Origin: Candidatus Chisholmbacteria bacterium RIFCSPHIGHO2_01_FULL_52_32
GTDB lineage: Bacteria > Patescibacteriota > Microgenomatia > UBA1400 > Chisholmbacteraceae
Assembly (NCBI GenBank): GCA_001816585.1
Contig: MHCJ01000006.1
Coordinates: 40-64,039 of the forward strand
Reading direction: 5' to 3'
DNA length: 64,000 nt
The notes under the pieces were generated by a model that saw only the letters and a program-made list of their open reading frames with translations, searched no databases and was not told where the DNA came from. Both the position numbers and the translations under genes were made by a program. Positions 1 to 48,553 of this stretch are shown one piece after another (within the stretch, counting starts at the first letter, position 1; each line of letters starts with the position of its first letter).

Positions 1-980
1 TTCCCCTTGATAGTCCTTGATTTCCCTTGATACCCCTTGGCGGCGTCCAAGCCGCCCGCGCTCACCTGGAAGTACTTCAGGAACAATTCCAGCGTATCCG
101 GGTAGGGGACGAAGTCCGCATCAAACACGACGATGAATTCCGCTCTGGGGTCAGTGGCTTTGAGGGCTTCTTTGAGTGCTCCTCCCTTGAAGCCTGCCCG
201 GGTATCTCTATGGAGAAGCTTGATAAGGGGCGTAGAGCCTAGGGCATAGGGCGTAGCGTCTCCCTCTGTATTCTCTGCTCTCTGCTCTCTGCCCTCTGCC
301 CTTAGCCCTAAGCGCTTAGCATTCCATTCTTCGGCAAACTGCCGAACAATGGCCGTGGTCTCATCCGTACTGTCATCGCAGACGATCACTTCATACCGCT
401 CATAATCGAAGGAGCTGCAGGCTTTAAGGAGTCTCTCCACCACCCGCGGTTCGTTGTAGACGGGGAGATGGATGGAGATGAAGGGATACCGCTCAAGCTT
501 CACCTGGGAGACATCGGGCTCCAATCCTCCTCCCCTCTGCTCTTCGCTCTCTGCCATCCGCCCTCCACCCTCAACCCTCGACCCTAAACCCTCTCCTCTC
601 ATCATCCCTATCCCGAACAGCTTCCCCAACCATCCCGTTTTGAATTTGCCTGCCCTGAGCTTTGTCGAAGGGGAAGGTGAAATTTGAAGTGTATGTGGAA
701 CTTGTGATTGGTCATTGGTGATTTCTTCCGAAGCTTCTCTTGAAAAGCTCAACACGACTGCCAGGGTGAAGTAGTACTTGAGGGAATAAAGGAAGAAGAG
801 AGTGCCGGAAATAAGCGCCAGGGAGGCAAACACCCATCCCAGAGCTTGGATCGAGTTGGTGGCAGTTCCCAAGAGTCTTCCCCATGCGAAAAGCCCAAAG
901 AAGATAAAGATTGAGAGAAGGATAAACGTGGAGAAACGCCGAAGGAGGAGGACCGCTTGCCTCGCCGAAGTCCTGAGCAT
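1..980 (-). CDS. Family 2 glycosyltransferase, CesA/hyaluronan-synthase-like; partial, runs off the window start. N-terminal TM helix after Met at 978-980, then a low-complexity G/E/R linker.
   Basis: Manual minus-strand translation gives ...YPFISIHLPVYNEPRVVERLLKACSSFDYERYEVIVCDDSTDETTAIVRQFAEEW...EFIVVFDADFVPYPDTLELF..., a GT2 DXD-type catalytic region. The frame stays open to position 1. It is missing from the ORF track because there is no stop inside the window. Confidence 0.6.
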   Translation of the reverse strand, partial: MLRTSARQAVLLLRRFSTFILLSIFIFFGLFAWGRLLGTATNSIQALGWVFASLALISGTLFFLYSLKYYFTLAVVLSFSREASEEITNDQSQVPHTLQISPSPSTKLRAGKFKTGWLGKLFGIGMMRGEGLGSRVEGGGRMAESEEQRGGGLEPDVSQVKLERYPFISIHLPVYNEPRVVERLLKACSSFDYERYEVIVCDDSTDETTAIVRQFAEEWNAKRLGLRAEGREQRAENTEGDATPYALGSTPLIKLLHRDTRAGFKGGALKEALKATDPRAEFIVVFDADFVPYPDTLELFLKYFQVSAGGLDAAKGYQGKSRTIKG

Positions 981-1937
981 ATCGAAGGACGGAGGCGGGG
1001 CGGGAGCCCGCGTCGGCACGAACTGCTCCCATACTTGCTTGAGCCGATCTTGCCAGGATAGTGCAGGCCGTACCGCCAATGTTACTGGCGTGTGCGCCTG
1101 GGCGTAAGCTAATCGCCTTTCAAATGTATTCAAACTATATCGTAACAATATATTCTGTATCGCATGATGACCTATATCCGGTATCTGCGCCTTTAGTCGA
1201 TGTACGGAAAGCCGGGGTTCCGCAACCACCGCCTCCAGCACTCGCGAAACGACGATTGGAGGCGTCCAGCGCCGATGCAGATCACCAACCGCATACCGAT
1301 CACCCAAGGATTCAATAAGGAAAGCCTCGCGCAGCTTTGCCTCTTCGTATCGCTGTTTCCAAAAATAGAAAGTCTTCCGACTCACCCGAAATTCCCGACA
1401 AGCCTCACCCACGCGCTTTCCTTCTAAGAGCACAGCTTCAATCAACCGCTTTCGACTATTAGGTAAAAGGCGAAAAGCCCGACGCCCCAAAACATCCGTA
1501 ACCCCCTTCACGGTCTGATGAAGCCGGCTGAACTCCTCACGCTGCGAAGCCGTAGAAAGATCAAGTTCTTTGAGTAAAGTGTGGATGGCGTGATGGCCAA
1601 TTTCCTTTCCGCAGTTGCGTAGCGCTTGACAGATCTGTCTGCTACTCCACTCGGGGTGGGAAACCACAAAACGAAGGACAAATCGCCGGAACTTGCTCCG
1701 ACGCTCCCGTGGGTGTTCGGAGCCCATAGGGTAGCGAAACTGAAGGGCCAAGCGACTCCCCCGCCCCCGACGTCCCTCCCACAACCGCTTCCAGCAGTAG
1801 AAGGTTTTTCGCGAAATGCCATTCTCCCGGCAAACAAGCGAAACCGGCTTCTTTTCCTCAAGTACAAGCCTCAAGATTCGCTCACGAACATGCGCAGGAA
1901 AACGTTTGAAGCGGTGCAATTTGAATGGGGCAGACAT
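981..1937 (-). CDS. Two tandem copies of an IS481-family-transposase-like N-terminal DNA-binding module (HTH plus integrase N-terminal HTH). No DDE catalytic domain. Same frame as the downstream GT2 with no intervening stop.
   Basis: Translated codon by codon from Met 1935-1937. Rep1 is RERILRLVLEEKKPVSLVCRENGISRKTFYCWKRL...VVSHPEWSSRQICQALRNCGKEIGHHAIHTLLKEL and rep2 is RKRLIEAVLLEGKRVGEACREFRVSRKTFYFWKQRY...RRWTPPIVVSRVLEAVVAEPRLSVHRLKAQIPDIGHHAIQNILLRY. There is no stop until 1974-1976 (TAG) upstream of the Met. Confidence 0.4.
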
Positions 1938-2410
1938 CCAAATTCGTCCAATCTTTAACCGATTGAGCTGAGTCTAATGGGCAGTGTTGTTCTCAGGCCT
2001 ATGTTAAGTGTTACCAACCATGGGTACTCTTGTCAAGTAGCCGAGGGGTTAAAATTCCATGATTTTTCACGGCCGAAAAAAAGTGCAAATTACGGCCAAA
2101 AAACCAGACGGAAATATACAGGAGAAGAAAAGCTATAAGCCAGTATAGAATTCAATGCTATAGAGTCTTAGAGAATATAATATAGTGTCTATGAGTGAAG
2201 TATCTCCACAACCCGAGAGAAGTCAATTCCAGAGGAAAAGCAAAGCCTAAAGAAGGCTAACTCCCTTCCCTCTTCCACTCAACAACCCCAAGAATCCAAA
2301 ACAGTCTCCGAATCCAACCAAACAGAGAAAAAATCAAAAAACCAGCTGAATTGAGGAAAGAATGTCCTTCTTTTCAGAAGAGAACACGCTCCAGTCCCCC
2401 TAAAACGCCT

Positions 2411-2740
2411 TCAAGAGAGCTGGGGATACTTTTCTAACTCCTGGGAACGGCAAATAAAGCAGTGCGTCCGCGTGTACCGGAAGCTTACAGCCCGCACCAC
2501 CAGCTCATAGACAGAAGAAAGACAAAGTGATACTCCGGTAAAAAGAAAGCCAAGCCCGAGGATGTACGACAAAGGCGAAGGAAGCGTTTGGAGCAAATAG
2601 TAACCAAGGAGAGCCAACAGTAGAAAAGAACCAGACAGGATACTGTATTTGACGGCCCCAACGAAACCCACCAGAAGGTGATGCCACCAAACGTGATTCC
2701 CTGTCAAGAACGCCTTTTCCATCACTCCTATTATCCGCAA
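2411..2740 (-). CDS. Hypothetical small membrane protein.
   Basis: ORF-track entry with hydrophobic segments. An overlapping alternative frame (2505..2828) exists. AT-rich surroundings. Confidence 0.25.
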   Translation of the reverse strand: MRIIGVMEKAFLTGNHVWWHHLLVGFVGAVKYSILSGSFLLLALLGYYLLQTLPSPLSYILGLGFLFTGVSLCLSSVYELVVRAVSFRYTRTHCFICRSQELEKYPQLS

Positions 2741-2856
2741 GGTTGAATGATGCTGTCAACCAAAGACAACCTGGAAGCTTCAAACAATAAACGAACAAGA
2801 AATGTCTCCAAAACATTGGAAGAGGCAAGTATGATAAAACCCTGGATGAAAGAAAA

Positions 2857-3661: not shown

Positions 3662-4978
3662 TTAGAAATTCCCTTTGCCCTCTGCCCTATGCCCCCTTAG
3701 CATCATTGCATCCGCCACCCGTTGCACCGCTAGGATGTACGCCGCCGTGTGGAGGTCAACCTTCTTTTCCTGGGCCAATTCCCAAACAGCCGCAAAGGCA
3801 GCCTCCATGATCTCTCCTAATCGTTCAAACACCAATGTTTTTGTCCAATAGTATCCGGACAGATTCTGGACCCATTCAAAATAGGAGGCCGTCACTCCTC
3901 CGGCATTCGCGAGGATGTCGGGAACCAGGACGACGCCTTTCTTTCGAAGCACCACGGCAGCGGCTTCCGTCACAGGTCCATTAGCCATCTCAATGATCGC
4001 CTTGGCTCGAACCGACTGAACGTTATGGATGCCAATTACTCCCTCCATCGCTGCCGGTACCAGCACATCGACATCAAGTGTCAATAGCTCGTCGTCCGAT
4101 ATCGCCTTTCCATGACGAAGATCACAAACGGACCCGACGCAATAACAGCTGGCGATCTTCCCTTTCTCTTCCTTACAAGCCAGGGTTAGCTGTGGATTCA
4201 ATCCCTTGGGCACGGATACGGCTCCTTTGCTATCTCCTGCAGCCACAACGGTAAACCCTGCCTTATCCGCAAAGTGGGCAAACCAGTATCCGACATTCCC
4301 GAAACCCTGGATTGCGATGGTCGCGTGTCGCTTTTTCAGACCGAGTTTCGCGGCCAGGAGCTTAAGGATAATCGACCCGCCAAATCCGGTTGCCTCTTCT
4401 CTCCCTAACGAACCGCCCAATGCTACCGGCTTCCCCGTAATAACTGCGTAAGGGCTTTCATCATTTTGACTTTTGACTTTTGACTTTTGACTTTGAATTT
4501 TTTGGTACTCATCCACCATCCAAGCCATAATCTGGGCATTCGTATTCAGATCCGGCGCCGGGACATCCTTCCATGCCCCAAAATAGGGCGCAAACACCCG
4601 CATGTAGGCTCGGGAAAGGCGTTCAAGCTCGCCCGATGAAAGGGTCTTGGGATCAACCACAACACCACCCTTCGCCCCGCCGAAAGGGATACCGACCACG
4701 GCGCACTTCCAGGTCATCCACAGGGAAAGCGCCTTCATCTCTGCCTCATTCACTTGAGGGTGATAGCGGATCCCTCCCTTAAACGGGCCCCTGGCATCGT
4801 TGTGTTGGCTGCGAAATGCGGGGAACTTCCGTATCTTCCCGTCATCCATCTTCACGGATAGCAACTTCCTAATAAATCTTTTCGGAAACTTAAGTTGCTC
4901 AACCATGTCCGCCGGAGCATCCAGATACGGCCTCGCTTCCTCAAGCTGTTTGATAGCATCCTGGTATGGATTCTCCAT
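3662..4978 (-). CDS. gdhA: Glutamate dehydrogenase, NAD(P)+ dependent.
   Basis: Full-length GDH signatures: KGGIRYHP, the GIPFGGAKGG glycine-rich region, and an NAD-binding GFGNVG. It carries an in-frame repeat insert, QKSKVKSQ. Confidence 0.9.
   Translation of the reverse strand: MENPYQDAIKQLEEARPYLDAPADMVEQLKFPKRFIRKLLSVKMDDGKIRKFPAFRSQHNDARGPFKGGIRYHPQVNEAEMKALSLWMTWKCAVVGIPFGGAKGGVVVDPKTLSSGELERLSRAYMRVFAPYFGAWKDVPAPDLNTNAQIMAWMVDEYQKIQSQKSKVKSQNDESPYAVITGKPVALGGSLGREEATGFGGSIILKLLAAKLGLKKRHATIAIQGFGNVGYWFAHFADKAGFTVVAAGDSKGAVSVPKGLNPQLTLACKEEKGKIASCYCVGSVCDLRHGKAISDDELLTLDVDVLVPAAMEGVIGIHNVQSVRAKAIIEMANGPVTEAAAVVLRKKGVVLVPDILANAGGVTASYFEWVQNLSGYYWTKTLVFERLGEIMEAAFAAVWELAQEKKVDLHTAAYILAVQRVADAMMLRGHRAEGKGNF
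4464..4503. repeat. Tandem heptamer repeat (TTTTGAC)x4 plus degenerate units, inside gdhA and in frame. Encodes SQKSKVKSQN.
   Basis: Direct reading: ttttgacttttgacttttgacttttgactttgaattttttg. Confidence 0.85.
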
Positions 4979-6382: not shown

Positions 6383-6412
6383 ACTCTTTCCCTACGCTCT
6401 CTGCCCTATGCC

Positions 6413-6739
6413 CTATGCCACTTTCTTGATCAATTCTTCGTACCCGGCCTTTCCACCGAACCCAATCTTCCGCTCCACCTCTTTCCCGTCCTTAAAAAGG
6501 ATAACGGTCGGAATACTCATCACTCCATGGACGACCGCCTGCCCATTGTTCTCATCCACATTAAGCTTCCCGATCTTAACCTTCCCGGCATACATTTGGG
6601 AAAGCTCATCGACAACCGGCGCGGCCATCCGACAGGGCCCGCACCACTCCGCCCAAAAATCCACCAATACAGGCAGAGGGCTCTTCAAAACCTCCTCCTC
6701 AAAGTTCTCATCAGTAATAGTGACAGTGGTAACCGCCAT
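6413..6739 (-). CDS. trxA: Thioredoxin.
   Basis: WCGPC active site, 108 aa. Confidence 0.9.
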   Translation of the reverse strand: MAVTTVTITDENFEEEVLKSPLPVLVDFWAEWCGPCRMAAPVVDELSQMYAGKVKIGKLNVDENNGQAVVHGVMSIPTVILFKDGKEVERKIGFGGKAGYEELIKKVA

Positions 6740-6787
6740 ATCGAACTTCCTTTCTCGCTCTGCTAACTCTAATCTTAAATCTTTCTC

Positions 6788-7027
6788 TCAGCTTATCCGA
6801 AACAACGTCTGGATCATCCGCGCAAACCGCTCATTTTCTTTCCCTGACCGCGCGCAGCGAATCGCTTCTCCCGAGAGAACCATTTTCCCAACCTCGGCCA
6901 AAGCAGACCGTACCGCTCCAATCTGCTGGGAAAGCTCCATACATTCTCGCCGCTCAAGGTACATCTTCCGGATACCGGCGATTTGCCCCTCAATCCTTCG
7001 TAGTCGTATCTCAATCGGGTCAGTCAT
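6788..7027 (-). CDS. CsoR/RcnR/FrmR-family metal-sensing transcriptional repressor.
   Basis: 79 aa with RLRRIEGQIAGIRKM and conserved Cys/His positions typical of DUF156. Confidence 0.65.
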   Translation of the reverse strand: MTDPIEIRLRRIEGQIAGIRKMYLERRECMELSQQIGAVRSALAEVGKMVLSGEAIRCARSGKENERFARMIQTLFRIS

Positions 7028-7133
7028 ATTGAAAGTTAGTAACTTTTAACTTTTGACTTTAAACTTTTAACTGTTGAAATACTCCCCCCCAGTATATAGC
7101 CGAAGCTTCATCCTGTCAAGGAAGAAATAAACC

Positions 7134-9903: not shown

Positions 9904-10840
9904 ACGACCTTTTTCTATTCAATGAGTATAATAATAACCCACCAAGAACAATCGATAAAACACCCATCCCCTGGGCAACATTAATCCCAAAAATAGCCCA
10001 CTGACTAATCCGTAACACCTCAAGCCCAAATCGACCCGCCCCATACAGTATAAGATACACGAAAAAATAGCTCCCTGCATGCAAGCGGAACCTCTTCCTC
10101 CAAATCAAAAACAGAACACCGAAAACGCCAAGCGAATACAGCGATTCGTAGAGGAAAAGGGGATGAAAATGGGTAAAATCCTCAAAACCGGCCATCCGAA
10201 ACTCGGGCGGGATAAAAAGACCCCAGGGAAGATCAGTCGGTTTCCCGTAGAGCTCCCGATTAAAAAAGTTTCCCCACCTCCCGATCGCCTGCCCAATCGG
10301 CAAGCCGAACGCCGCCAGATCAGAAAAAGCTAAAAATCGGTTCCTTACGCATTCAGAAAAGAGCGCGGACGTCTTTTCGTGCAGCGAACTACGGCCAGGC
10401 TGAAAGCCTGCCAGGCTTAACAACGAAGAAAGCTTCTCTAACCAAACCTTAGGAAACAAACGAAAAGTATGTCCGCGCTCACGACGGCATAACCACCAGC
10501 AAAACATCCACAATCCAAAGATCCCTCCGGCAATCGCCCCAAAAATCCCAAGCCCCCCCGTCCAAAGAGCGGGAATCAGGGCGAGGTGTTCCCGATAGTA
10601 CTCCCACAGATCGACTACATGATAGATACGCGCCCCAACAATCCCAGGTACCACCACCCACCACAACGATCCCCAAACATCGTTTGGGGATAATTCGAAT
10701 TTCGAATTTCGAATTTCGAATTTTCGCGCGAAGCGCGAGGCCACCCAAAATCCGACCAGAATCCCCAGTCCTACGAGAAGACCATAGGGGTGAATCATCA
10801 GTGAGAAAGTTTCCATTCTGCTTCCTCTATTGTAGCCCAA
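9890..10840 (-). CDS. lgt: Prolipoprotein diacylglyceryl transferase.
   Basis: Polytopic, with the Lgt signature region (...GRWGNFFNRELYGKPTDLPWGL...). An in-frame repeat insert, ARKFEIRNSKFEL, sits near the N-terminus. Confidence 0.8.
   Translation of the reverse strand: MGYNRGSRMETFSLMIHPYGLLVGLGILVGFWVASRFARKFEIRNSKFELSPNDVWGSLWWVVVPGIVGARIYHVVDLWEYYREHLALIPALWTGGLGIFGAIAGGIFGLWMFCWWLCRRERGHTFRLFPKVWLEKLSSLLSLAGFQPGRSSLHEKTSALFSECVRNRFLAFSDLAAFGLPIGQAIGRWGNFFNRELYGKPTDLPWGLFIPPEFRMAGFEDFTHFHPLFLYESLYSLGVFGVLFLIWRKRFRLHAGSYFFVYLILYGAGRFGLEVLRISQWAIFGINVAQGMGVLSIVLGGLLLYSLNRKRSYERN
10693..10726. repeat. Tandem heptamer repeat (ATTCGAA)x4, inside lgt and in frame.
   Basis: taattcgaatttcgaatttcgaatttcgaattttcg. 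Confidence 0.85.
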
Positions 10841-11433: not shown

Positions 11434-11496
11434 CTAAACTCCACGCAACAAGAAACCCCGGCAACAAACCAAGTACCCTTTGAGCGGCTTCTTTGT

Positions 11497-14060: not shown

Positions 14061-14606
14061 TCATTCGCTTACCAACCCGAGAATTCCACCAAACTCCAGA
14101 ACTACCTGATCAGTCACCTGTTGTATAAGCGCCTGTTCTTCTTCCGTAAACCGCTGCAGGACATACGCCTCTCCGGTCGTCCTCTGCTCTTCCATGCCCT
14201 TCGCCCTATGCTCTATGCCGATACGAATATGCCAGAATCCCTCCGAACCCAATTCTCTATAGATCGATTGAAGTCCCTGATGTACTTTCGGCCCTTTCCC
14301 AAATTGAATCTTGTACTTCCCAAGCGGAATATCTAAATCATCATGCACGACATAAAGATTAGACTTGGAAACCTTGTAAAACCGAACCAACTTCCCGACA
14401 GCCACTCCAGATCGATTCATAAACGTCTGTGGTTTCGCCAATAAAACATCATCTACCTGGAACACCAAGCTCATATACTTTTCATTGATTTTGAATTTTG
14501 AATTTTGAAGCGTTGCTGCTAGCTCCTCCACCACCAAAAATCCGACATTGTGTCTGGTGCCAACATATTTCCCTCCCGGATTCCCCAAACCAACGACAAG
14601 TTTCAT
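14061..14606 (-). CDS. pth: Peptidyl-tRNA hydrolase.
   Basis: MKLVVGLGNPG...GTRHNVGF...HDDLD signatures. Contains two in-frame repeat inserts, QNSKFKIN and an AKGMEEQR-type segment. Confidence 0.85.
   Translation of the reverse strand: MKLVVGLGNPGGKYVGTRHNVGFLVVEELAATLQNSKFKINEKYMSLVFQVDDVLLAKPQTFMNRSGVAVGKLVRFYKVSKSNLYVVHDDLDIPLGKYKIQFGKGPKVHQGLQSIYRELGSEGFWHIRIGIEHRAKGMEEQRTTGEAYVLQRFTEEEQALIQQVTDQVVLEFGGILGLVSE
14486..14510. repeat. Tandem heptamer repeat (TTTTGAA-like), inside pth and in frame.
   Basis: tgattttgaattttgaattttgaag. Confidence 0.8.
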
Positions 14607-23880: not shown

Positions 23881-24144
23881 GACCCTAAACCCTCTACCCT
23901 AAACCCTCTACCCTCATTCAATTTAAATCTGCCGCAAAACGATATACGCGAGAATAACAACAACGATAAACAGGGACCCAAATATCAAGCTTAACCATCC
24001 TCCTAAATCACTCTTAACAAGTTTGTGCAAGCCCTCCCCGATAAGGGTAAACCCAAACAGGCTTGGAATAATAAGGACCATATAAAGTAACTGAGGATCA
24101 GAAAAATCAATCATCCGCCTCCGCTGTTTATGGACGCCTTCGTG

Positions 24145-29412: not shown

Positions 29413-29468
29413 GTGTAATTTTGAATTTTTAACTGCAATTTTTAACTTTTAATTTTGAATTTTAAACT
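29413..29468. repeat. Intergenic AT-rich heptamer tandem repeat between recF and mutM.
   Basis: gtaattttgaatttttaactgcaatttttaacttttaattttgaattttaaac. Confidence 0.8.
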
Positions 29469-32069: not shown

Positions 32070-32092
32070 TACTCCTTACTCCTTACACCTCC

Positions 32093-33061
32093 CTAAAACA
32101 TCTCCTCCTGCACCATCTGCTCAAACGAATCGTCAGGAAGACGGGGGATTAAGGTGGTAAATTCGAGCGCTCGGAACTTCTCGACAGCCTTTTCCTTATC
32201 GTAATCCGAAACAACACACTTCCCAAGATCAAGCACGATGGGAGCATCGGTCGCAATCGTAGCAAGCTTCATGGAAAGATGAGCAGACTCCTTTCCATCG
32301 GCCAATTTCTGAAACACCGCTTCACCAAATTTCGTTTTGATTTCTTTAAGGTGGTGATAAACCCTGCCCAAGTCACCGTAGGTTTGAATAAGCGTTGTTG
32401 CTGTCTTTGGTCCGATGCCCTTTACCCCGGGAATTTCATCTGATGAATCTCCGGCAAGTGCTTTAAAATCGGTCAGCTGCTGCGGAGTCAGCCCATACCG
32501 CTCCATCACGACATCGACATCCCAAAGCGTTGCTGCCTGTTTTCCCCTTCCGGGAGTGTAGACCACCACGCGTTTCCCCTCCACGAGTTGCAGAGCATCG
32601 CGATCCCCTGTTACAATCACAACTTCAATATCATTTTTTTTCCCTCTGCCTTTCACCCTTTGCCCTTTGCCGTGAGCCGCTTGTTTCACGAGCGTTGCAA
32701 TCACATCATCCGCTTCATACCCTTCCAGCGAAAAAATTGGGATATTGAGGATCGACACGATCTCCCAAACCCGTTCCTGTTGACTCGCAAGGTCGGCCGG
32801 CATCTCTGGCCGATGGGCCTTATAGCCCTTGTACTCCACATGGCGAAAGGTCGGTTTGTCCCGATCGAAGCAAACCACAAGGTGGGAAGGCGAAAGCTCG
32901 CGAATGACAGAAAGAAGAATGTTGGTAAATCCATAGACGGCGTTAATCAATTCCCCTTTTCTCGTCGTCAGGGGCGGGTACGCATGAAAGGCCCGGAATA
33001 GCACCGAATGTCCATCAATCAGAACCAGTCGCTTTTGTTGATCGGATTTTCCTCGATTCAT
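32093..33061 (-). CDS. Stand-alone 5'-3' exonuclease (DNA polymerase I N-terminal-domain-like, FEN family).
   Basis: ...LVLIDGHSVLFRAFHA... plus an H3TH region (GIGPKTA). An in-frame insert HGKGQRVKGRGKK is encoded by a CTTTGCC-type repeat at 32648-32672. Confidence 0.8.
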   Translation of the reverse strand: MNRGKSDQQKRLVLIDGHSVLFRAFHAYPPLTTRKGELINAVYGFTNILLSVIRELSPSHLVVCFDRDKPTFRHVEYKGYKAHRPEMPADLASQQERVWEIVSILNIPIFSLEGYEADDVIATLVKQAAHGKGQRVKGRGKKNDIEVVIVTGDRDALQLVEGKRVVVYTPGRGKQAATLWDVDVVMERYGLTPQQLTDFKALAGDSSDEIPGVKGIGPKTATTLIQTYGDLGRVYHHLKEIKTKFGEAVFQKLADGKESAHLSMKLATIATDAPIVLDLGKCVVSDYDKEKAVEKFRALEFTTLIPRLPDDSFEQMVQEEMF

Positions 33062-37170: not shown

Positions 37171-37176
37171 GCTCTG

Positions 37177-37249
37177 TGCTAGGGGTGGGATTCGAACCCA
37201 CGACCTATCGCTTATGAAACGACCGCTCTGCCACTGAGCTACCCTAGCA
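37177..37249 (-). tRNA. tRNA with anticodon CAU, either elongator Met or Ile2/lysidine. They cannot be distinguished by eye.
   Basis: Minus-strand cloverleaf: GCUAGGG / UA / GCUC-AGUGGCAGA-GAGC / GUCGU-UUCAUAA-GCGAU / AGGUC / GUGGG-UUCGAAU-CCCAC / CCCUAGC-A. Confidence 0.85.
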
Positions 37250-37578: not shown

Positions 37579-37734
37579 ACCCCGCGCGTTGTCAAAACGA
37601 GCCAATTTTACCAAATTCCTCTGGAAAAATCAACCTAAAAAAACGTCTCTCTCTAAACGCATTTCAATTGGACCAAGAAGCATGAAGTATTGAGTAAGAA
37701 GGAAATAAACTCGCTTTGGGGATCTCTTCTTGAA

Positions 37735-37920
37735 TACCCTTTGAACGCAGCTACTCGAGAACGACGTGAGCGAATACCATTAAGATGTCATCGACTGTCC
37801 GACGAAGGGTTTATCCCGAGAAGTTTGATGACAAAGGATGAGCGAACGAGCTCCCGAGAGACCGTTCACTGGGGCGTCATTCTTTGGTTACTTTCTTAGA
37901 CGAGTAAGAAAGTAATAAAT
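37735..37920. repeat. Copy C3 of the roughly 190-bp repeat family.
   Basis: accctttgaacgcagctactcgagaacgacgtgagcgaat...cgttcactggggcgtcattctttggttactttcttagacgagtaagaaagtaat. Confidence 0.55.
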
Positions 37921-39593: not shown

Positions 39594-39651
39594 CCTCACT
39601 ATAACACACAATCAAAGCGAGCAAAAGAAGGAAAAGAAATAAACACGATTG

Positions 39652-39723
39652 TGCGCCCGCTTGGATTCGAACCAAGGACATCTACTTTATAAGAGTAGCG
39701 CTCTGCCGCTGAGCTACGGGCGC
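39652..39723 (-). tRNA. tRNA-Ile with anticodon UAU (reads AUA).
   Basis: Minus-strand cloverleaf: GCGCCCG / UA / GCUC-AGCGGCAGA-GC / CUACU-CUUAUAA-AGUAG / AUGUC / CUUGG-UUCGAAU-CCAAG / CGGGCGC-A. Positions 34-36 are UAU. Confidence 0.75.
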
Positions 39724-39865
39724 TCGCTGCCGGAGGAATTATACCACCGACCCCTCTACCCTACTTGCCCGACGAAGCATCCAGAATGGAGTCTTGACTA
39801 ATGATCAAGACGGAATCTCTGGAGCAGAGGCGGGAACCCTATACGCTAAACGCTAGACGCTATTC

Positions 39866-42193
39866 CTACAGCCTGGACCTCTTCGCCACATCCGCCTCAA
39901 TCTCAGTCCGGTCCTTCCCGTACTTAAGCCTTGAAAGCTGACGGATCATCTCTCCGACTTTGGGATTCCGCAGTCTTCGCTCCTCTTCCACATCCTTGGT
40001 TAAATCCATCGAAAACGGCGGCATGGGCTCGTTATTCACCACGGTTTTTATGTAGACGTTGAACCGTTCGACATTCACCAAATCCCCTTCGGTAAAGGTC
40101 GGGGTAAACTCATGTTGAAGGAAATTTGCGTCCGACACACCAACCCGGAAGGTAACCAAACTTCCCACATTTCCGAACACAGCCTGTTTCACCTCTTCCT
40201 CAACCTGCCCAATGAATTGGTTGGCAACCGTCAGGTTCAGTTTATACTTCCTCGCTTCGGAAAGAATGACCGCAAAATCCGGTGTCGCAAAGTTCTGGAA
40301 CTCATCAACATAGAGGTAAAAATCGCGTCGTTGTTCCTCCGGAACATCCTGACGGCTCATCGCCGCAATAAGGATCTTCGGCACCAGGATAAGCCCCAAG
40401 AAGTTGCTGTTTTCTTCCCCGATCTTCCCCTTCGCAAGGTTTATAAGAAGTATTTTTCCCTCATCCATCACGTTTCGGAAATTGAATGCGCTCGCAGATT
40501 GCCCGATGATATTTCGCATCATCTTGTCTGTGACAAACCGCCCGAATTTCGAGACGATGTAGTCCAACACCTCGGATTTATGGAAGTCTGCCGTCTGGGC
40601 AATCTGGTCCGTCCAATAACGCCTGACGATCGGATCGCGGACCTTGGGAAGCAATTCCTGAACATACTTAGAATCGGTGAGCACCCGCACCACCTCAACA
40701 AACGTGTTGCCCGGTTCGCTCATTACGGTAAGCATCGCATTGCGGATCGCGTGCTCAAACCGCGGTCCGATAATCCCCGTCTTATGGGGATCGTAGAGCT
40801 TGTACATGAGGCCAATGAGCGAGGAAACCACGAAATGCTTCTGTTCTTCGGTTTCTGCTTCAAGCATGTTAAGCCCCATCGGCCGTTCGGTGTCGGAAGG
40901 ATCAAAGTAGATTACATCCTCCGCCCGCTCGGGAGGAATAAGCTCCAAGATCTGCTCAACCATGTCATGGGGATCAATAAAACACACCCCTTTCCCCGCC
41001 CGGATGTCTTGCATAATCATGTCTTTTAAGAATTCCGACTTCCCCGTCCCCGTTTTCCCGATGATGTACATGTGCCGCCTGCGGTCATCATCGGCGATGT
41101 AGACCTTCCGTGTCACCCCCCGGTAGGCGCTCTTCCCAAGGTAAAGTCCCTCTAAAGGAATCTGTGCCGGTGCCGGTGCCCTTTTCGCCATCAGCCAAAA
41201 GATGTGGGGGGTTTCCACCTGCTTGTTGGGAAAATGCATGATGGTTGCCAACTCTTCACTCGAGAGGACCGACCGCTTCCCAAAAAACGGCTGGTACCGG
41301 TAAATAAAATCAATCATGAATAAACGCCGAAGCCAAATCCGCGCCTTCTCGAAGCCGTTCTGATCCGAGGAAAACTGGGAAAATGCCCCGATGATGTTCC
41401 GAAGATGAGCCTCCGCCGACTGCTGCGATGTGGATGAAACGACGATGCGAATAGTTGTTTCAAAGCCTGGTTTTGCAACCTTATTCTCAATGGCTTCCAA
41501 GGTTTTTGCATCCACCATATATCTGGCTTTCTCGGGATCCGCCTCCTGAGCCTTAGTTTTAGCAACATAAGAAGCTCCCGCACTCTGCCAGGATTTTGAA
41601 GCGGGACTGATAAGGATTTGCAGCACCGCTCCTTCATCATCACCCATCTTCGCCAGTGCCGAGGTAACCGAACTCAACGGATCAGTGGGAAGTTCCTTAT
41701 ACACCTTCAGCGGTAAGTGAGAAGACGAACGAATTTTAAGCTGAGCATAAGCAACTTTCCCGGTTTCTGAAAAAATATTGTACTCATCAACTTCCTTAAC
41801 TTCTGCTCCGGGATATGCCCCATGGATCTGCTTTTCAACCAAATCGCGGAGCTCCATCGGACAGACAACCATGAAACGGATATCCTCTTTCCGGGCTACA
41901 ATCTCAAAGGAGAAGTGATCCTCAGGTTTAAACCAGGAAAAGAAACCGACTTTTTTAACGGAGAACAAACTGGCGAGCATCTGCTCAGCAACATCGATCT
42001 TGAGTTCGTTATCCCTCGGCACCGCAACCTGCAAAACCACCGATCCGAGCGAGTACTCTTCCCTCCTCCGGTAACGGATCCATTGAAACAGAAGATAGAA
42101 AAGGGCAACCAACCCCACGATCCCAACGGCCGCAATAATCATCAGGGTAACAAAGAAGAATGCTGTTCCGACCGGATCACTCACTCTCGGCAT
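39866..42193 (-). CDS. Membrane-anchored P-loop ATPase of the FtsK/HerA-TraD/VirD4 superfamily (AAA-like, DUF87 / type-IV coupling-protein-like).
   Basis: 775 aa with an N-terminal TM helix. Walker A IIGKTGTGKSEF near the middle and Walker B LYVDEFQNF. The family assignment is from architecture only. Confidence 0.45.
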   Translation of the reverse strand: MPRVSDPVGTAFFFVTLMIIAAVGIVGLVALFYLLFQWIRYRRREEYSLGSVVLQVAVPRDNELKIDVAEQMLASLFSVKKVGFFSWFKPEDHFSFEIVARKEDIRFMVVCPMELRDLVEKQIHGAYPGAEVKEVDEYNIFSETGKVAYAQLKIRSSSHLPLKVYKELPTDPLSSVTSALAKMGDDEGAVLQILISPASKSWQSAGASYVAKTKAQEADPEKARYMVDAKTLEAIENKVAKPGFETTIRIVVSSTSQQSAEAHLRNIIGAFSQFSSDQNGFEKARIWLRRLFMIDFIYRYQPFFGKRSVLSSEELATIMHFPNKQVETPHIFWLMAKRAPAPAQIPLEGLYLGKSAYRGVTRKVYIADDDRRRHMYIIGKTGTGKSEFLKDMIMQDIRAGKGVCFIDPHDMVEQILELIPPERAEDVIYFDPSDTERPMGLNMLEAETEEQKHFVVSSLIGLMYKLYDPHKTGIIGPRFEHAIRNAMLTVMSEPGNTFVEVVRVLTDSKYVQELLPKVRDPIVRRYWTDQIAQTADFHKSEVLDYIVSKFGRFVTDKMMRNIIGQSASAFNFRNVMDEGKILLINLAKGKIGEENSNFLGLILVPKILIAAMSRQDVPEEQRRDFYLYVDEFQNFATPDFAVILSEARKYKLNLTVANQFIGQVEEEVKQAVFGNVGSLVTFRVGVSDANFLQHEFTPTFTEGDLVNVERFNVYIKTVVNNEPMPPFSMDLTKDVEEERRLRNPKVGEMIRQLSRLKYGKDRTEIEADVAKRSRL

Positions 42194-42326
42194 ATCTGAT
42201 AACCTTCCCTCTCTTTGCTCTCCCAGTGAAGTAACGCTCCGCGTACTTCACGGGATCCCGTGAGATATAAAAGTTATCTCACTGGGATCTGCTCTACGCC
42301 CTATGCTCTATGCTCTAAGCTCTCTG

Positions 42327-43425: not shown

Positions 43426-44025
43426 TCAAAAATCCAAGCCCTTCACGGCTTTCCTGCCCCGATCATACGGATGCTTGATTTTTCGCATCTCGGTCACCAG
43501 ATCCGCAAGCTCCACAATTTTTGGATGTGCACCTCTTCCTGTCAACACCAAATGTGTCTTCTCCCTATCAGAAATTAGGTCAATTAGAGCACTTAGGTCA
43601 ATTAAGCCGTCAGAGACGGCGTTATTAACCTCATCCAAAATCAGCATATCAACCTGTCCTACCAGCTCCTTTGCTTTCCGAAGTGCCGCCTTCGCCGCTT
43701 TCTTATGCTCATTCTCCCCCGCCCGATCCACAACCACCCCACCGCCAGCAATCGGAGCGGTTTTGATCTGCCTTCCTCTCTGATTCATAATTCCTGATTC
43801 ATAATTCGTGATTCTAAAACCCACACCCATTGGAAATACCTTGAAGTTAGGAAATTGATCCGCTAATCGATACTCGGAAACATCCCAGTCTCTGCTCTTG
43901 TACCAACAAACCATCACAACCGTCATTCCGGAGAGTGCCGCCCGCACCCCTACTCCCAACGCAGCAGAAGTTTTCCCCTTTCCGTTCCCTGTGAATACGT
44001 AAACAAGTCCTTTTTGAATAGTCAT
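43426..44025 (-). CDS. Cob(I)yrinic acid a,c-diamide (corrinoid) adenosyltransferase, CobA/BtuR type.
   Basis: P-loop GNGKGKTSAALG... and a CobA-type N-terminus. Contains an in-frame 14-nt x2 tandem duplication (RITNYESGIMNQ). Confidence 0.7.
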   Translation of the reverse strand: MTIQKGLVYVFTGNGKGKTSAALGVGVRAALSGMTVVMVCWYKSRDWDVSEYRLADQFPNFKVFPMGVGFRITNYESGIMNQRGRQIKTAPIAGGGVVVDRAGENEHKKAAKAALRKAKELVGQVDMLILDEVNNAVSDGLIDLSALIDLISDREKTHLVLTGRGAHPKIVELADLVTEMRKIKHPYDRGRKAVKGLDF

Positions 44026-44112
44026 TCTAAACCCTAGACGCTAAACCCTAAACGCTACTGACAATTGTTGCATTTTTCTCCACTTATCGTTGCATCCAGA
44101 CGAAAAGTGCTT

Positions 44113-45271: not shown

Positions 45272-47587
45272 CTACACTTCACAAACGCTGTACCCGCACA
45301 GCTGGCACTTTGAACAACCCTCGGTAAACGACATCGGTCCGCCGCATTCCGGACACTTGCCCCCTTCCGTCTCACCCACCCCAAAAGAGGCCGCCCGTAC
45401 CGCAAGCGGTGTGACAGAAAGTTTGCTCTGAATCCGAACACTCTTCGATTCCTTCTCAAGGATCTGCACCGACTTGCTTTTATCCCGATAGATCGTGATC
45501 CCTTTACACCCCATCTTCCAGGCTAACCGATAGGCCTTTTCGACATCCTCGATCACTGCCGATTCCGGAAAGTTGATCGTCTTGGAAACCGCATTATCGG
45601 TGTATTCCTGAAACGCCCCCTGCATTCGCACATGCCATTCTGGAGAAATATCATGGGCAGTCCGGAAAACATCCTTTATCCACTGTGGAATACCCAAAAC
45701 GGAGGTAACGCTCCCCGTTTTTGAGACTTCATGAAGGAGAGGTTCAATTGCGCTCCGCTCACCGTTTCCAACCGCACCAGCCAGCGCCTGTTCAAAAGAA
45801 GTGTTCATATACGTCAACCCTTCCTGATCTACAACGTTTTTCACAAATGAAAGAGCAAAGATCGGCTCGATCCCGGATGAGCAATCGGCAACCATGCTGA
45901 TCGTCCCTGTGGGGGCTATGGTCGTGACGGCAACATTCCGCACTTTCACTCGCTTCCCCAAATGCGGATGCTTTCGTGCAAAGTCGCTCTTCTCCCATAG
46001 CGGGAACGCACCCTTCTCCGCAGCAATCCTCGCGCTTTCATCCCATCCGATCCTCTGAATGAACTGCGCCACTTTCTTTGCCAAACGAACAGCTTCCTCG
46101 CTGTCGTATCGGACACGAAGCGAAACTAATAAATCCGCCCATCCCATCACCCCGAGGCCAATCCGACGGACATTATGTGCCATGGCGCTGATTTGAGGAA
46201 TGGGATAAAAACTCGCATCAATCCCGTCATCCAAGAACCGTACCGCTATTCGCACGACCTCCTCCAACCGCTTCCAATCAATGAGGTCTTCTGTTTTACC
46301 CTTTGCCCTTTGCCCGCTTGTCCTGAGCGAAGTCGAAGGATTGCCCTTTGCCTTTTTAACAAACTTCCCCAAATTAACAGACCCTAAGTTGCACACGTCA
46401 AACGGATGAAGCGGTTGTTCCCCGCAAACATTGGTTGCCGTAATAGGCCCAAGAGCCTTAAGAAGCGGGTTATCTCGATTGATCGCATCAAGATAAATCA
46501 TTCCCGGATCGCCGGTTTTCCATGCCAAAGCAACAGCCTGGTCAAACACCGTCCGCGCCTTCGTTCGCCGTACGACCGCGCCCGTACGCGGATTCACCAA
46601 ATCCCAATGACCATCCTTCTCAACCGCTCCCATGAACGCATCACTCGCCCCCACCGAAATATTGAAGTTGCCAATTTCCCCTTCCTGCGTCTTGCAGGTG
46701 ATAAATTCAAAAATATCCGGGTGGTCGGCATTCAGGATGCCCATGTTAGCCCCGCGGTGGCGCCCTCCAAGCATCACGATCTCCGTCGCCGCATCAAACG
46801 CCTTCATAAACGAAACGGGCCCTGAGGCAAATCCGCCGCCACCGACCGCATCTCCGTTCGGTCGAAGCTTGGAAAAATTGTAACCAGTCCCCCCACCCGA
46901 CTGATGAATGAGTGCTGTCCACTTCACCGCATCAAAAATTGCCTCCATGTCATCCTCAACCGGTAACACGAAGCAATTTGCGAGTAGCCCCCGTTTTTGC
47001 CCGGCTCCCCGAAAGTAACAACCTGCCGGAACAAAAGAAAACGTGCTCATTATCTCGCTAAATTTTTGCTCCCAAGCCTTACGCTGACGCTTCTCGACTG
47101 CGGAAACACAAGCAGCCACTCGCTCCACCGCTTGTCGGGGCGTTTCAACCACATTCCCCCGTTCATCTTTGAGAAGATAACGCCTGGCCATTGCCTTGAG
47201 AGCATTGACGGACATCCCGAGGTCATCCTCAACGCCCAACACGTTCCGCACTGTCCGCAGCTCCGCTTGTCGTTGTCGGAAGAGGATGTACGCCTTCGCC
47301 GTACGGTAGTGAGACCCCGCCATCAATACCTGCTCTACGATATCCTGCACCTGCTCAACAGTCGGAATCACCTTTCTCGCCCCTCGAAGCCCTGGCGAAG
47401 TGGGGCCATTGGTTCGCCGGAGAAGTTCAATCACAATACTCGTCAGCCGCTTCGCTTCAATTTCCCCGAACTCGCCGGTTACAGCCGAAGATTTTAAGAT
47501 CGCAATGGTGATCTTGGCGGGATCAAACGCTACCACCCCTCCATCGCGCTTTCTGATCTGCTTAATGGCGAAAGCGTTATCTGCCAT
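45272..47587 (-). CDS. nrdJ: Class II (adenosylcobalamin-dependent) ribonucleotide reductase, paralog 1, with an N-terminal ATP-cone and C-terminal Zn-ribbon.
   Basis: ATP-cone (IRKRDGGVVAFDPAKI), a catalytic core with NLGSVNL, the PTGTIS motif, and a C-terminal CPECGG...C..C..C. An in-frame insert AKGNPSTSLRTSGQRAKGK matches the interspersed repeat core. Confidence 0.85.
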   Translation of the reverse strand: MADNAFAIKQIRKRDGGVVAFDPAKITIAILKSSAVTGEFGEIEAKRLTSIVIELLRRTNGPTSPGLRGARKVIPTVEQVQDIVEQVLMAGSHYRTAKAYILFRQRQAELRTVRNVLGVEDDLGMSVNALKAMARRYLLKDERGNVVETPRQAVERVAACVSAVEKRQRKAWEQKFSEIMSTFSFVPAGCYFRGAGQKRGLLANCFVLPVEDDMEAIFDAVKWTALIHQSGGGTGYNFSKLRPNGDAVGGGGFASGPVSFMKAFDAATEIVMLGGRHRGANMGILNADHPDIFEFITCKTQEGEIGNFNISVGASDAFMGAVEKDGHWDLVNPRTGAVVRRTKARTVFDQAVALAWKTGDPGMIYLDAINRDNPLLKALGPITATNVCGEQPLHPFDVCNLGSVNLGKFVKKAKGNPSTSLRTSGQRAKGKTEDLIDWKRLEEVVRIAVRFLDDGIDASFYPIPQISAMAHNVRRIGLGVMGWADLLVSLRVRYDSEEAVRLAKKVAQFIQRIGWDESARIAAEKGAFPLWEKSDFARKHPHLGKRVKVRNVAVTTIAPTGTISMVADCSSGIEPIFALSFVKNVVDQEGLTYMNTSFEQALAGAVGNGERSAIEPLLHEVSKTGSVTSVLGIPQWIKDVFRTAHDISPEWHVRMQGAFQEYTDNAVSKTINFPESAVIEDVEKAYRLAWKMGCKGITIYRDKSKSVQILEKESKSVRIQSKLSVTPLAVRAASFGVGETEGGKCPECGGPMSFTEGCSKCQLCGYSVCEV
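46297..46352. repeat. In-frame insert inside nrdJ paralog 1: CTTTGCC heptamers flanking the cctgagcgaagtcgaagga element core.
   Basis: ccctttgccctttgcccgcttgtcctgagcgaagtcgaaggattgccctttgcc. Confidence 0.75.
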
Positions 47588-47622: not shown

Positions 47623-48051
47623 TTATTTGTCATTCTCGCCCTCAGCGAGAGGATGTCCTCCTCTGTACTTTGCTTTAATCCGATAGTAGTGCCGCCAACG
47701 CTCCGCTTCGGACGCGTCGCTTGCAAAGATTTTTTCAGGATACTTCTCCTCATTCTTCCTCATCTTCATCTCAAACGCGTGGGCTAAATCGATATGTAAA
47801 CTCTCCGCCATGACGAGCACCCACCAGAGAACATCCGCCAATTCATCGCAGATGGGCCCATAAAGCCTGGCTTCCTTTCTTACTTCATCTCCCGTTTTCC
47901 ATTGAAAATGTTCCAAAAGCTCGGTTGCCTCCAGAACCACGCTCAACGCGATGTCTTTTGGATCCTCACCGGTCCACTTCCTTCGTTGACGAAACTGAAG
48001 GACCTGCTTCTTAAGCTCTTCAACCTTCGTCTTTTCATCATTCATCGACAT
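47623..48051 (-). CDS. MazG-like nucleotide pyrophosphohydrolase.
   Basis: EATELLEHF...ELADVLWWV is the MazG EExxE motif region. Confidence 0.7.
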   Translation of the reverse strand: MSMNDEKTKVEELKKQVLQFRQRRKWTGEDPKDIALSVVLEATELLEHFQWKTGDEVRKEARLYGPICDELADVLWWVLVMAESLHIDLAHAFEMKMRKNEEKYPEKIFASDASEAERWRHYYRIKAKYRGGHPLAEGENDK

Positions 48052-48063
48052 ATTCCTCCTTTC

Positions 48064-48513
48064 TTAGTCCTTACTCCCGACTCGTAAATAATCCTCCACA
48101 ATCCTGTTATGATCAAAGGCGAGGCGTGGGAGTTCATCCAAAGCGAACCACTTCGCCTCCAATGCATCATCACCGAATTGTAGCACCCCACCAATAATCA
48201 ATACCTCATACACAACGGTCACCCGCTGCAACGTATCACGGCGTGGATCGGAATAGACACCAAGAAACTTCCCCACTCGTCCGCTCAGTCCGGCTTCCTC
48301 AGAAAACTCCCTCAAAACCGCCTCCTCCGCATCCTCATCCCAATCCAAGAGTCCGCCCGGCAATGCCCACTTTCCCCGGTCCGGTTCGTTCCCGCGTTTG
48401 ATGAGAAGTACCTTTCCATCGGAAACCGCCAAGCCGTCCACTGCAATATTACGTAAATATCTGTTCCCGCAAACCCCGCACTTCTCCCCTCGCTGCAATC
48501 GAACGGTTCCCAT
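48064..48513 (-). CDS. NUDIX hydrolase.
   Basis: Nudix box GGLLDWDEDAEEAVLREFSEEAG. Confidence 0.8.
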   Translation of the reverse strand: MGTVRLQRGEKCGVCGNRYLRNIAVDGLAVSDGKVLLIKRGNEPDRGKWALPGGLLDWDEDAEEAVLREFSEEAGLSGRVGKFLGVYSDPRRDTLQRVTVVYEVLIIGGVLQFGDDALEAKWFALDELPRLAFDHNRIVEDYLRVGSKD

Positions 48514-48516
48514 ATC

Positions 48517-48553
48517 TCTAACTTTTAACTTTTCACTTTAAACTTTAAACTTT
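48517..48553. repeat. AT-rich heptamer tandem repeat, intergenic and overlapping the nrdJ paralog 2 stop.
   Basis: aacttttaacttttcactttaaactttaaactttaca. Confidence 0.8.

Follow-up and report, generated by a model that had tools for sequence, protein, structure and literature searches.

How can a simple repeat with a period of seven nucleotides, which is not a multiple of three, live inside essential genes? The question was raised by a stretch of 64,000 nucleotides (the window) from Candidatus Chisholmbacteria bacterium RIFCSPHIGHO2_01_FULL_52_32 (contig MHCJ01000006.1, positions 40 to 64,039), in which short tandem arrays of heptanucleotide units lie both between genes and within the open reading frames (ORFs) of housekeeping genes. 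The proteins of the window appear in public records as those of a Candidatus Chisholmbacteria bacterium of the Microgenomates group, candidate phyla radiation (CPR), and the window is 100% identical to contig MHCM01000001.1 of assembly GCA_001816955.1 (L092). The arrays belong to the known kind of heptanucleotide simple repeats; they qualify neither as a contingency locus, judged by tract length, strain variation and host gene class, nor as a mobile element, for which ends and target duplications were lacking. The new part is their in-frame behaviour, a translation filter and in-place concerted evolution in essential genes, recurring across CPR relatives. We consider it probable that these short arrays are made and kept uniform by out-of-register misalignment over 7 nt and are then filtered by selection.

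Tandem Repeats Finder (TRF) reported about 30 period-7 rows in the window, at or near the coordinates given in an earlier note, which had claimed that heptamer arrays recur across this DNA. The arrays are real. An X-drop scan at a strict threshold found 19 period-7 arrays against 0.04 in mononucleotide shuffles, with 0-2 arrays for each of the periods 5, 6 and 8-12; at a relaxed threshold there were 22 against 0.23. The 22 arrays were 21-56 nt long, with 78-100% unit identity and about 3-8 units, and the longest perfect tract in the window reached about 4.6-4.7 units. Higher-order repeats of 14 nt, formed by alternating heptamers, were present among them. Beyond 48.6 kb no array exceeded the scan thresholds and TRF gave weak period-7 rows only. 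The six intergenic arrays named in the earlier note were all present, as were its genic cases with the peptides it had listed: gdhA, lgt, pth, recF, an endonuclease Q (EndoQ) gene (two), DNA ligase (two), the glycosyltransferase genes GT4 (two) and GT2, and a 5'-3' exonuclease (FEN), where the array exists but is degenerate (66% matches). Pfam confirmed glutamate dehydrogenase, Lgt, Pth, RecF, ATP-dependent DNA ligase, GT4, 5'-3' exonuclease and ribonucleotide reductase (RNR) as host genes. Two earlier labels were replaced. The "PHP protein" was identified as an EndoQ family protein, and the ligase described as LigD-like was found in Pfam to be a three-domain ATP-dependent ligase (N, adenylation and OB domains).

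A greedy ORF map assigned 89.5% of the window to coding and 10.5% to non-coding DNA. The non-coding part held 8 of the 22 arrays, in spacers or straddling gene boundaries, at about 5-fold the density of the genic part (p = 0.001). Despite this enrichment 14 of the 22 arrays were still in ORFs, 13 of them inside and one forming the last nine codons of gdhA. For all 22 the purine-rich strand was the minus strand, i.e. the sense strand of the surrounding genes, and the opposite polarity was found in one weak array only (228-256). Since the GC skew of the window is negative throughout with a monotonic fall (GC about 50%) and nearly all genes are on the minus strand, replication-linked and transcription-linked polarity are inseparable here. 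The unit families AAAAGTY, AAATTCG, AAAATTC, GGGCAnA and AGGGTTT recurred in the window and in close relatives, while other lineages used other units. The arrays were identical in independent assemblies from other samples and had orthologous counterparts in related species; because of this they are not assembly artefacts, a concern that the earlier note had raised.

At what level the repeat arises was seen from the genic arrays. For each of them a perfect array was built from the majority unit and translated in the frame of the gene. Where the unit was stop-free in all three frames (AAAGTCA in gdhA, AAATTCG in lgt, TTCAAAA in pth), the real array was perfect or deviated at one end only. The (GGGCAAA)3 array of RNR contained one internal change, which was synonymous. 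Six arrays would carry an in-frame stop if they were perfect, and in six out of six the real sequence deviated at exactly that codon. At EndoQ site 2 (AAATGAC to AAATTAC) and in the ligase array at 23557 (AAAAGTT to AAAAGTG) the stop-removing change was the sole internal deviation. In contrast, sense-strand stops occurred in units of all eight intergenic arrays. Because genic arrays deviate at the would-be stop codons and intergenic units contain stops, the repeat is made at the DNA level, with coding constraints acting afterwards, in agreement with the earlier description of translated DNA-level repeats inside intact conserved genes. The term "frame-preserving" used in that description was right only in that the ORFs are open in net; the array lengths (21-56 nt) are not multiples of 3 or 21.

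The arrays were proposed to lie where homologues vary, and alignments of GdhA, RecF, FEN, EndoQ and ligase supported this. In comparison with solved structures the gdhA array was an 8-residue insertion, the recF array also 8 residues and the degenerate exonuclease array 12, whereas the ligase arrays added about 5 and 9-13 residues relative to relatives. GdhA homologues terminated before the C-terminus GHRAEGKGN encoded by the second gdhA array, and a degenerate stretch near the end of pth (14195..14218) added about 5 residues relative to M. tuberculosis Pth. The EndoQ arrays fell in the two hypervariable segments of an alignment of 27 sequences, in which minimal homologues were 10-12 residues shorter. 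For EndoQ and GdhA alike, the loop residues were missing in distant homologues, and in close relatives the site was always occupied, with altered units. An AlphaFold model of EndoQ built on this alignment had a mean pLDDT of 87, and its sole internal low-confidence blocks, residues 71-80 (57) and 241-250 (49), coincided with the two arrays.

The claim that the arrays are lineage-specific insertions held for GdhA, RecF and FEN but not for Pth, Lgt and the GT4 linker, where the net length change was 0-2 residues. The pth array aligned with AKFKAHK of M. tuberculosis with a one-residue gap and no net insertion, and the GT4 array substituted for a linker of similar length. The lgt array was 0-2 residues longer than the matching loop of relatives; Lgt gave no sequence match to solved structures, and this loop assignment is based on alignment to two relatives. 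As a rule the claim was not supported. Period-7 or period-14 DNA also occupied a helix of fixed length. In five other CPR lineages the Pth helix FMNxSG..KKLTTxYxLLTTNLYVVHDD was encoded by such DNA without gaps, with lineage-specific units and no length change. Period-7 arrays inside pth were found in 4 of 16 metagenome-assembled genomes (MAGs) whose Pth was closest to CPR and in 0 of 64 others (Fisher p 0.001, by our own grouping). As a separate observation, the loci L008, L010, L011, L014, L015, L017 and L032, labelled "uncultured Gammaproteobacteria" or "Bathyarchaeia archaeon", were rich in heptamer arrays at a GC of 37-46%. Their Pth proteins were closest to CPR Pth (37-46% identity to that of the window), and the taxonomic labels may be wrong.

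Orthologous sites remained occupied across species, with different units. The lgt array (AAATTCG)4.6 recurred in another species of Chisholmbacteria (L007, 62% protein identity), where its 24-nt core was identical to that of the window and its flanks were about 80% identical. EndoQ site 1 held AAAAGTY arrays in four related species, differing at the unit level, and EndoQ site 2 held AAATGAC units in three species, AAATTCK in a fourth and CAATGAT in a fifth. In the gdhA loop the window had (AAAAGTC)4.4, L236 (AAAATTC), L234 a perfect (AAATGGC)5.6 and L235 (AATGGAG)4.6. These arrays of four species stood in one register between conserved flanks and encoded unlike peptides (KSKVKSQ, KFKIQN, KWQMANG and WRMENEE). 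Between the window and L236 an identical G/T difference was found in every unit, together with a 6-nt length difference that fits a loss of 7 and a gain of 1. GdhA identity among the four species was only 60-74% and yet the arrays were perfect; homogenisation is therefore required for them to stay so. From their sequences, the GdhA-loop arrays read as in-place homogenisation, i.e. concerted evolution. In an alignment-based count over 79 GdhA homologues, lag-7 identity in the loop was 0.147 compared with 0.046-0.091 at other lags, and at least three lag-7 identities were found in 22 of the 79.

Within species the arrays were stable. No unit-number change was found in the covered arrays among 16 same-species contigs (98.4-100% identity), and all full-length members of 90%-identity clusters were of equal length; differences in unit number were seen between species only. 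This constancy does not agree with the hypermutable frameshift switch that the earlier note had suggested. A change of unit was found in strain L091 (98.4%), which had (AAATTCG)4.6 at the GT4 site where the window has (AACAAGA)4. When L091 317-1456 was aligned with window 30927-32069, the N-terminal half of GT4 was divergent (about 80% protein identity) and the C-terminal half identical, with the switch at the linker array, a pattern suggestive of recombination whose breakpoint was at this array or close to it. Cluster members of 70 aa and 373 aa hinted at an EndoQ frameshift variant, which was discarded as an array effect because the break was near residue 373, away from both arrays.

Period-7 arrays were not a peculiarity of this genome. 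In a comparison set of 1.3 Mb, consisting of 80 loci from many phyla fetched through Pth, 7 was the commonest array period, with 49 arrays compared with 23 for period 6 and 18 for period 9. The window density of 0.30 per kb was eight times the average of this set, and similar densities were found in some CPR loci (Berkelbacteria, Peribacteria) and in one Acidobacteria locus. The sequence (AAATTCG)3 was found in at least 120 metagenome contigs with a GC of 30-68%. Among the (AAATTCG)n matches listed, perfect lengths were 21-36 nt with one of 45 nt, and 62 were in long ORFs, 51 of them in the sense orientation (KFEIRNS) and 11 not (p = 3e-7). By eye, the flanking peptides of several matches resembled aminoacyl-tRNA synthetases, MurG, UppS, GatA and Pol I. 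For other genic arrays in low-GC metagenome matches the purine-rich strand was the sense strand in 21 of 26. AAATTCG was also considered as a universally preferred motif and rejected, as the control (AAATTGC)3 gave 10 viral-contig matches compared with 3 for (AAATTCG)3. In two loci, one from Acidobacteria and one from Berkelbacteria (L031, L037), closely spaced inverted pairs of heptamer arrays were frequent; a similar arrangement is seen at 228-320 of the window.

The specificity for period 7, the identity at the nucleotide level, the fractional unit ends, the 14-nt repeats and the unit-wide substitutions all point to misalignment, and an "unusually active slippage process", one of the options offered in the earlier note, is the best reading. 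Strand misalignment out of register by 7 nt during replication or repair would generate short arrays and homogenise them. Such a process would be blind to coding, and selection afterwards would set which arrays survive. In genes, the surviving arrays are those in a permissive loop or linker, in a net in-frame state and without any stop that is read; stop-free units stay perfect and others hold a point change exactly on the would-be stop. In most genic arrays the sense strand is the purine-rich one, and the peptides are rich in K, S, E, Q, N and R. Once established in a loop, an array outlasts speciation, and a substitution in one unit spreads to all, so that the units of perfect arrays come to differ between orthologous loops. 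Short spacers between genes are likewise filled by arrays, some of which contain a stop codon or a Shine-Dalgarno-like AAGGAG or GAGGG and may provide an unstructured A-rich leader. The sequences show the presence of the arrays, the period specificity, the translation filter, the loop positions, the persistence, the in-register change of units and the stability among strains, whereas the misalignment itself is inferred. Lethal frameshifts might be escaped by three-unit steps, by length-neutral conversion, or by a unit change offset by +/-1 in an adjacent A-run, a route that the 6-nt difference between the window and L236 would fit.

Several points weigh against misalignment followed by selection. 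No slippage event was observed, and unit number was equal in all closely related contigs compared. One-unit steps would frameshift essential genes, and the routes of escape named above are ones that we infer. Plain slippage accounts neither for the small genome-specific vocabulary (the five unit families given above) nor for the ceiling of about five perfect units, and it offers no explanation for the uniform polarity of the eight intergenic arrays (p = 0.008), where no protein filter acts. Structure-promoted slippage is not general either, as most arrays had no hairpin potential. Only (AAATTCG)n formed a structure when folded (-10.5 kcal/mol, z -2.1), whereas A-rich and G-rich arrays gave 0 kcal/mol with a tool that models canonical pairs only. 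Finally, the GT4 unit of L091 lies beside a recombination boundary, and some unit replacements may be recombination and not in-place turnover. Hairpin-driven slippage as such was tried and set aside; in addition to the above, the fold of the imperfect inverted pair in the GT2 ORF (220-325) did not exceed that of shuffles (z -0.96). The arrays at 3669-3694, 546-592 and 23882-23915 each have four or more G3 tracts with short loops on one strand, which makes these arrays candidate quadruplexes at the sequence level.

A stronger form of the idea is conceivable, although we doubt it: a register-7, length-neutral templated process that continuously rewrites permissive loops into heptamer arrays and re-homogenises them ("microsatellite takeover"). 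If true, loop turnover in CPR and other small-genome lineages would have a general driver that has not been described so far. The intergenic copies would then be exapted as stop, Shine-Dalgarno or leader modules, and the fixed sense polarity would reflect the mechanism (transcription- or replication-coupled) and not only selection.

Could the arrays instead be functional cis-elements on mRNA or DNA, either per-heptamer binding sites or leaders for translation initiation and operon-junction control, with the genic copies as tolerated by-products? Five of nine intergenic arrays include a start codon or end within 7 nt of one, some with AAGGAG or GAGGG, and judging from these positions a role of junction arrays in translation initiation is plausible. 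The uniform sense-strand polarity even between genes, the genome-specific vocabulary and the better conservation of the lgt array than of its flanks agree with such a function, and elements of four or five heptamers have been proposed as regulatory in Geobacter and Beggiatoaceae. However, with the short spacers of this genome any array between genes will abut a start codon, and such proximity is therefore expected anyway. Unit sequence is also unconserved at orthologous sites, with four different units in the GdhA loop, a search of the arrays against Rfam gave no family match, and most arrays are without predicted secondary structure. We consider this explanation unlikely, and far less probable still that the periodicity was selected at the protein level, as linkers of seven-residue repeats with the DNA repeat as a side effect. 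The strong sense bias among the (AAATTCG)n matches listed, the hydrophilic character of the encoded peptides and the raised activity conferred by heptads in NeuO would be expected of selected linkers, but not arrays that are also found between genes, terminate at fractional units and are exact at the nucleotide level, with synonymous differences between successive 21-nt blocks generally absent. Furthermore, one loop carries wholly different peptides in each species (GdhA), and the EndoQ arrays fall in unstructured stretches of the model.

It is also highly improbable that the arrays are contingency loci, in which slippage in unit number would switch genes off and on through frameshifts, or adjust them in steps of whole heptads in the manner of NeuO. 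A 7-nt unit does shift the frame unless three units change together, the heptanucleotide tract of NeuO is translated as heptads and able to switch its gene, and several arrays of the window are perfect and slippage-prone in principle. The tracts are short, however (at most 4.7 perfect units in the window, up to 93 units in NeuO), and their sites are internal loops of housekeeping genes (pth, lgt, recF, ligase, RNR) in a small genome. The hosts (gdhA, lgt, pth, EndoQ, ligase, recF, FEN, RNR and two glycosyltransferases) are not of the surface or host-interaction class, unit number was constant among the 16 species contigs, the 98.4% strain and the cluster members, and the lone split EndoQ gene is broken away from the arrays. 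Hardly more credible is the suggestion of the earlier note that a mobile repeat class has colonised the genes, i.e. that the arrays are copies of a small element, resembling a miniature inverted-repeat transposable element or inserted by an enzyme, that landed in genes and was tolerated in loops. A few motifs do recur at many loci, three AAAAGTT arrays share an equal internal order of variants, and (AAATTCG)n is found in the window lgt, the GT4 of L091, the EndoQ of relatives and the metagenome contigs; a second, clearly dispersed repeat class even inserts at the same hot spots. Against this, the 24-nt flanks of all arrays were unrelated when compared, and no terminal repeats, inverted termini or target duplications were found, so that the arrays were also rejected as parts of a larger element. 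Orthologous sites were occupied in many related species and, among the close relatives compared, differed not by presence or absence but by one or two substitutions copied throughout the units, and in viral contigs the control (AAATTGC)3 was no rarer than (AAATTCG)3.

The arrays are close to repeats already reported. Heptanucleotides were described as the most abundant long simple sequence repeats (LSSRs) in most bacterial genomes, with polymerase-footprint slippage as the proposed cause and with units not divisible by three rarely coding (Mrazek, Guo and Shah 2007, as summarised in PMC4679880 and PMC4692102). Going by these summaries, the window arrays resemble such LSSRs in their tandem 7-nt units, the excess of period 7 over neighbouring periods and the genome-specific motifs. 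They differ in that LSSRs are mostly non-coding, whereas 14 of 22 arrays here are translated, with a stop-codon filter and in-place unit replacement. Geobacter metallireducens has elements of four or five heptamers, with GGACCGG at 49 sites and MTYCTGA at 15 (PMC2700814), and intragenic four-unit elements are among its known examples. The role suggested for them was that of regulatory RNA elements or binding sites, and both phylum and motifs are other than in the window; the passages of that text covered here do not analyse reading frame, loop position or evolution. In cyanobacteria (Calothrix, Nostoc) the STRR heptamers include one inside the RNase P RNA gene (Vioque 1997, a title cited in PMC2858038). 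As far as these sources go, STRR resemble the present arrays as dispersed tandem heptamers with few genome-specific units that can sit in an essential gene; they are mainly intergenic or in structural RNA and belong to a different phylum. The STRR of the RNase P RNA gene is reportedly located in a tolerated variable part.

The closest coding example is the poly-psi tract of NeuO in E. coli K1, (AAGACTC)n, which is read in three frames as an RLKTQDS repeat and forms a flexible stretch not resolved in the structure (PMC3046976). Its 2-93 units lie at the 5' end of a surface-modification gene carried by a phage, and switching is frequent (PMC3046976), whereas the window arrays have 3-8 units in internal loops of housekeeping genes and showed no length variation. 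The TAACTGA repeats of marine Beggiatoaceae and cyanobacteria (PMC4679880) and the GGGNATC G-quadruplex repeats of Xanthomonas and Nostoc (PMC4692102) likewise occur as sets of 2-6 heptamers, often directly upstream of starts and, in Xanthomonas, as inverted pairs. The G-rich family of the window has the same G3N4 spacing as GGGNATC. These repeats are nearly all intergenic with one dominant motif per genome, whereas the window has several motifs that are mostly genic. A literature search combining CPR or Patescibacteria with tandem or simple repeats found no relevant paper.

These results indicate that essential genes can harbour a simple repeat whose unit is not a triplet, the rules being a permissive loop, a used frame that is free of stops and a purine-rich sense strand. 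Orthologous loops holding perfect arrays of different units are unusually clean examples of concerted evolution in single-copy housekeeping genes. For annotation and quality control of MAGs, stretches of CPR proteins with seven-residue periodicity and rich in K, S, E, Q and N are real sequence and not errors, and proteins that contain them look more divergent in alignments than they are. Protein scientists may take the arrays as markers of loops in which arbitrary sequence is tolerated. With its fixed sites, changing units and ceiling of about five units, the set could also help mutation research to examine why bacterial slippage favours a register of seven bases. The positions of the arrays are given in Table 1.

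Table 1. Heptamer arrays of the window, within genes and at gene junctions (TM, transmembrane; GDH, glutamate dehydrogenase).
Array	Position	Strand	Location and product	Remarks
Degenerate (GGGCGTA)~4	228..256	+	GT2 ORF	TRF; imperfect inverted pair with 265-320
(GCAGAGA/GCTAAGG), ~8 units	265..320	-	GT2-family ORF 3..1937; encodes AKRLGLRAEGREQRAENTE	Scan and translation
(AGGGTTG)-type, ~6.7 units	546..592	-	Linker between TM segment and GT2 catalytic domain; encodes EGLGSRVEGGGRMAES	G3N4 spacing
(GGGCAnA)x3.7	3669..3694	-	Last 9 codons of gdhA (GHRAEGKGN)	Four GGG tracts, 4-nt loops
Perfect (AAAAGTC)x4.4	4464..4494	-	gdhA loop; QSQKSKVKSQN	About +8 residues vs Pyrococcus GDH
(GGGCATA)-type	6390..6419	-	Between divergent genes	Ends 7 nt ahead of ATG at 6382
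(AAAAGTT/C)	7037..7072	-	At or after stop of + ORF 6408..7049	Polarity as for - strand transcripts
(AAATTCG)x4.6	10692..10723	-	lgt, TM1-TM2 loop; KFEIRNSKFEL	Conserved in another Chisholmbacteria species
Degenerate G-rich heptamers	14195..14218	-	pth C-terminal loop (HRAKGMEE region)	Below scan threshold
(TTCAAAA)x3.1-3.6	14485..14509	-	pth; LQNSKFKIN	No net insertion
(AAATGAC)x4.4	16576..16606	-	EndoQ site 2; GMTNDKLQMTN	One T-for-G abolishes in-frame TGA
(AAAAGTY)x4.4	17108..17138	-	EndoQ site 1; QLKVESQKSKV	
(GCAAAGC/GCAAAGG), perfect 14-nt repeat x2.7	23048..23085	-	Ligase adenylation domain; AKRKGQSAKGKAK	
(AAAAGTT)x5	23557..23597	-	Ligase N-terminal domain; EKLKVKSEKLKV	Lone G variant abolishes in-frame TAA
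(AGAGGGT/TTAGGGT), 14-nt repeat	23882..23915	-	Upstream of ligase	Ends 1 nt ahead of ligase ATG
(ACAAGTA)-type x4.6	28529..28560	-	recF; IVTSDKRQVTSR	+8 residues vs solved RecF structures
(AAAATTN), ~7 units	29416..29463	-	Spacer upstream of recF	
(AAAGTTC)x5	31026..31062	-	C-terminal part of GT4; RKFKVQSEKFKVE	
(AACAAGA)x4	31462..31489	-	GT4 inter-domain linker; KHVTRNKKQD	
(TAAGGAG)-like	32061..32090	-	Entire 5'-3' exonuclease/GT4 junction	Shine-Dalgarno-like AAGGAG copies and GT4 ATG inside
Degenerate (GGGCAAA)-type	32638..32671	-	5'-3' exonuclease; HGKGQRVKGRGKK	12-residue insertion vs Pol I 5' nuclease domains
(TAGCGTN)x3.9	39836..39862	-	Just past stop of ORF 39866..42193	
(AGAGCAT)-type x5	42288..42323	-	Spacer upstream of ORF 39866..42193	
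14-nt repeat x2.5 (two alternating heptamers)	43780..43814	-	Inside ORF 43426..44025	TRF
(GGTTTAG)-type x4.4	44027..44057	-	Directly upstream of start at 44025	Ends 1 nt before start
(GGGCAAA)x3	46295..46315	-	RNR; GQRAKGK	
(TAAAGTT/AAAAGTT)x5	48514..48554	-	Holds stop of ORF 48545..50821	Ends at ATG of ORF 48064..48513
Example of an array-spanning peptide			QSQKSKVKSQNDESPYAVITGK	

A second short dispersed repeat class was found in the same DNA, with cores like TTCGACAAAGCTCAGGGCAGGC and CCTGAGCGAAGTCGAAGGA, at 648-669, 15834-15907, 26582-26619, 33153-33226 and 46316-46340 of the window and at about 2700-2725 of the related locus L088. Its in-frame peptides are STKLRAGK (GT2 gene) and FDFAQDK (RNR), and in RNR the heptamer array 46295..46315 comes directly after the copy; between genes, 74-nt copies were 88% identical. 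In L088 a copy (PIRQAQGL) is located within the EndoQ heptamer array. Two further EndoQ homologues were unusual. P0004 is identical to the window protein over about 330 residues and then strongly divergent, which suggests a chimera or recombinant. P0050 carries the peptide EILRQSG..ARS.QDDS at two different loops and, together with P0026, points to one more dispersed repeat that is read in frame in other CPR lineages.

Among the host genes, the GT2 ORF (3-1937, minus strand) is open over 645 codons and begins with two or three transposase-type helix-turn-helix segments, with TM helices after them; its orthologue in L234 is annotated as HTH_Tnp_1 plus Glycos_transf_2. Three consecutive paralogues of the RNR large subunit, all on the minus strand, are found at 45272-47587, 48545-50821 and 50882-52852 (771, 758 and 656 aa). 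They have DNA segments in common that are 70-76% identical, ATP-cone domains are present in two of the three, and Pfam matched the barrel domain of the middle paralogue in two pieces.

Elsewhere in the window, a tRNA-Met(CAT) gene at 37303-37586 (minus strand), probably of the initiator type (5' end CGCGGGG), contains a 213-nt group I intron in the anticodon loop (Rfam Intron_gpI, 37353-37565, 82.7 bits). A second tRNA-Met(CAT) gene at 37176-37248 is without an intron. The tRNA-Ile at 39651-39723 (minus strand) has the anticodon TAT, an uncommon bacterial route for reading AUA. Related segments of 80-190 nt, 76-86% identical, were found at 11494-11573, 12466-12655 and 37727-37915, one of them adjoining the tRNA and intron region. 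A 65-nt repeat present in two copies (21959-22023 and 63537-63601, 92% identical) ends with the palindrome CCAGTCCGCCAGCTGGCGGACTGG; it is located downstream of genes and may be a terminator-like element.

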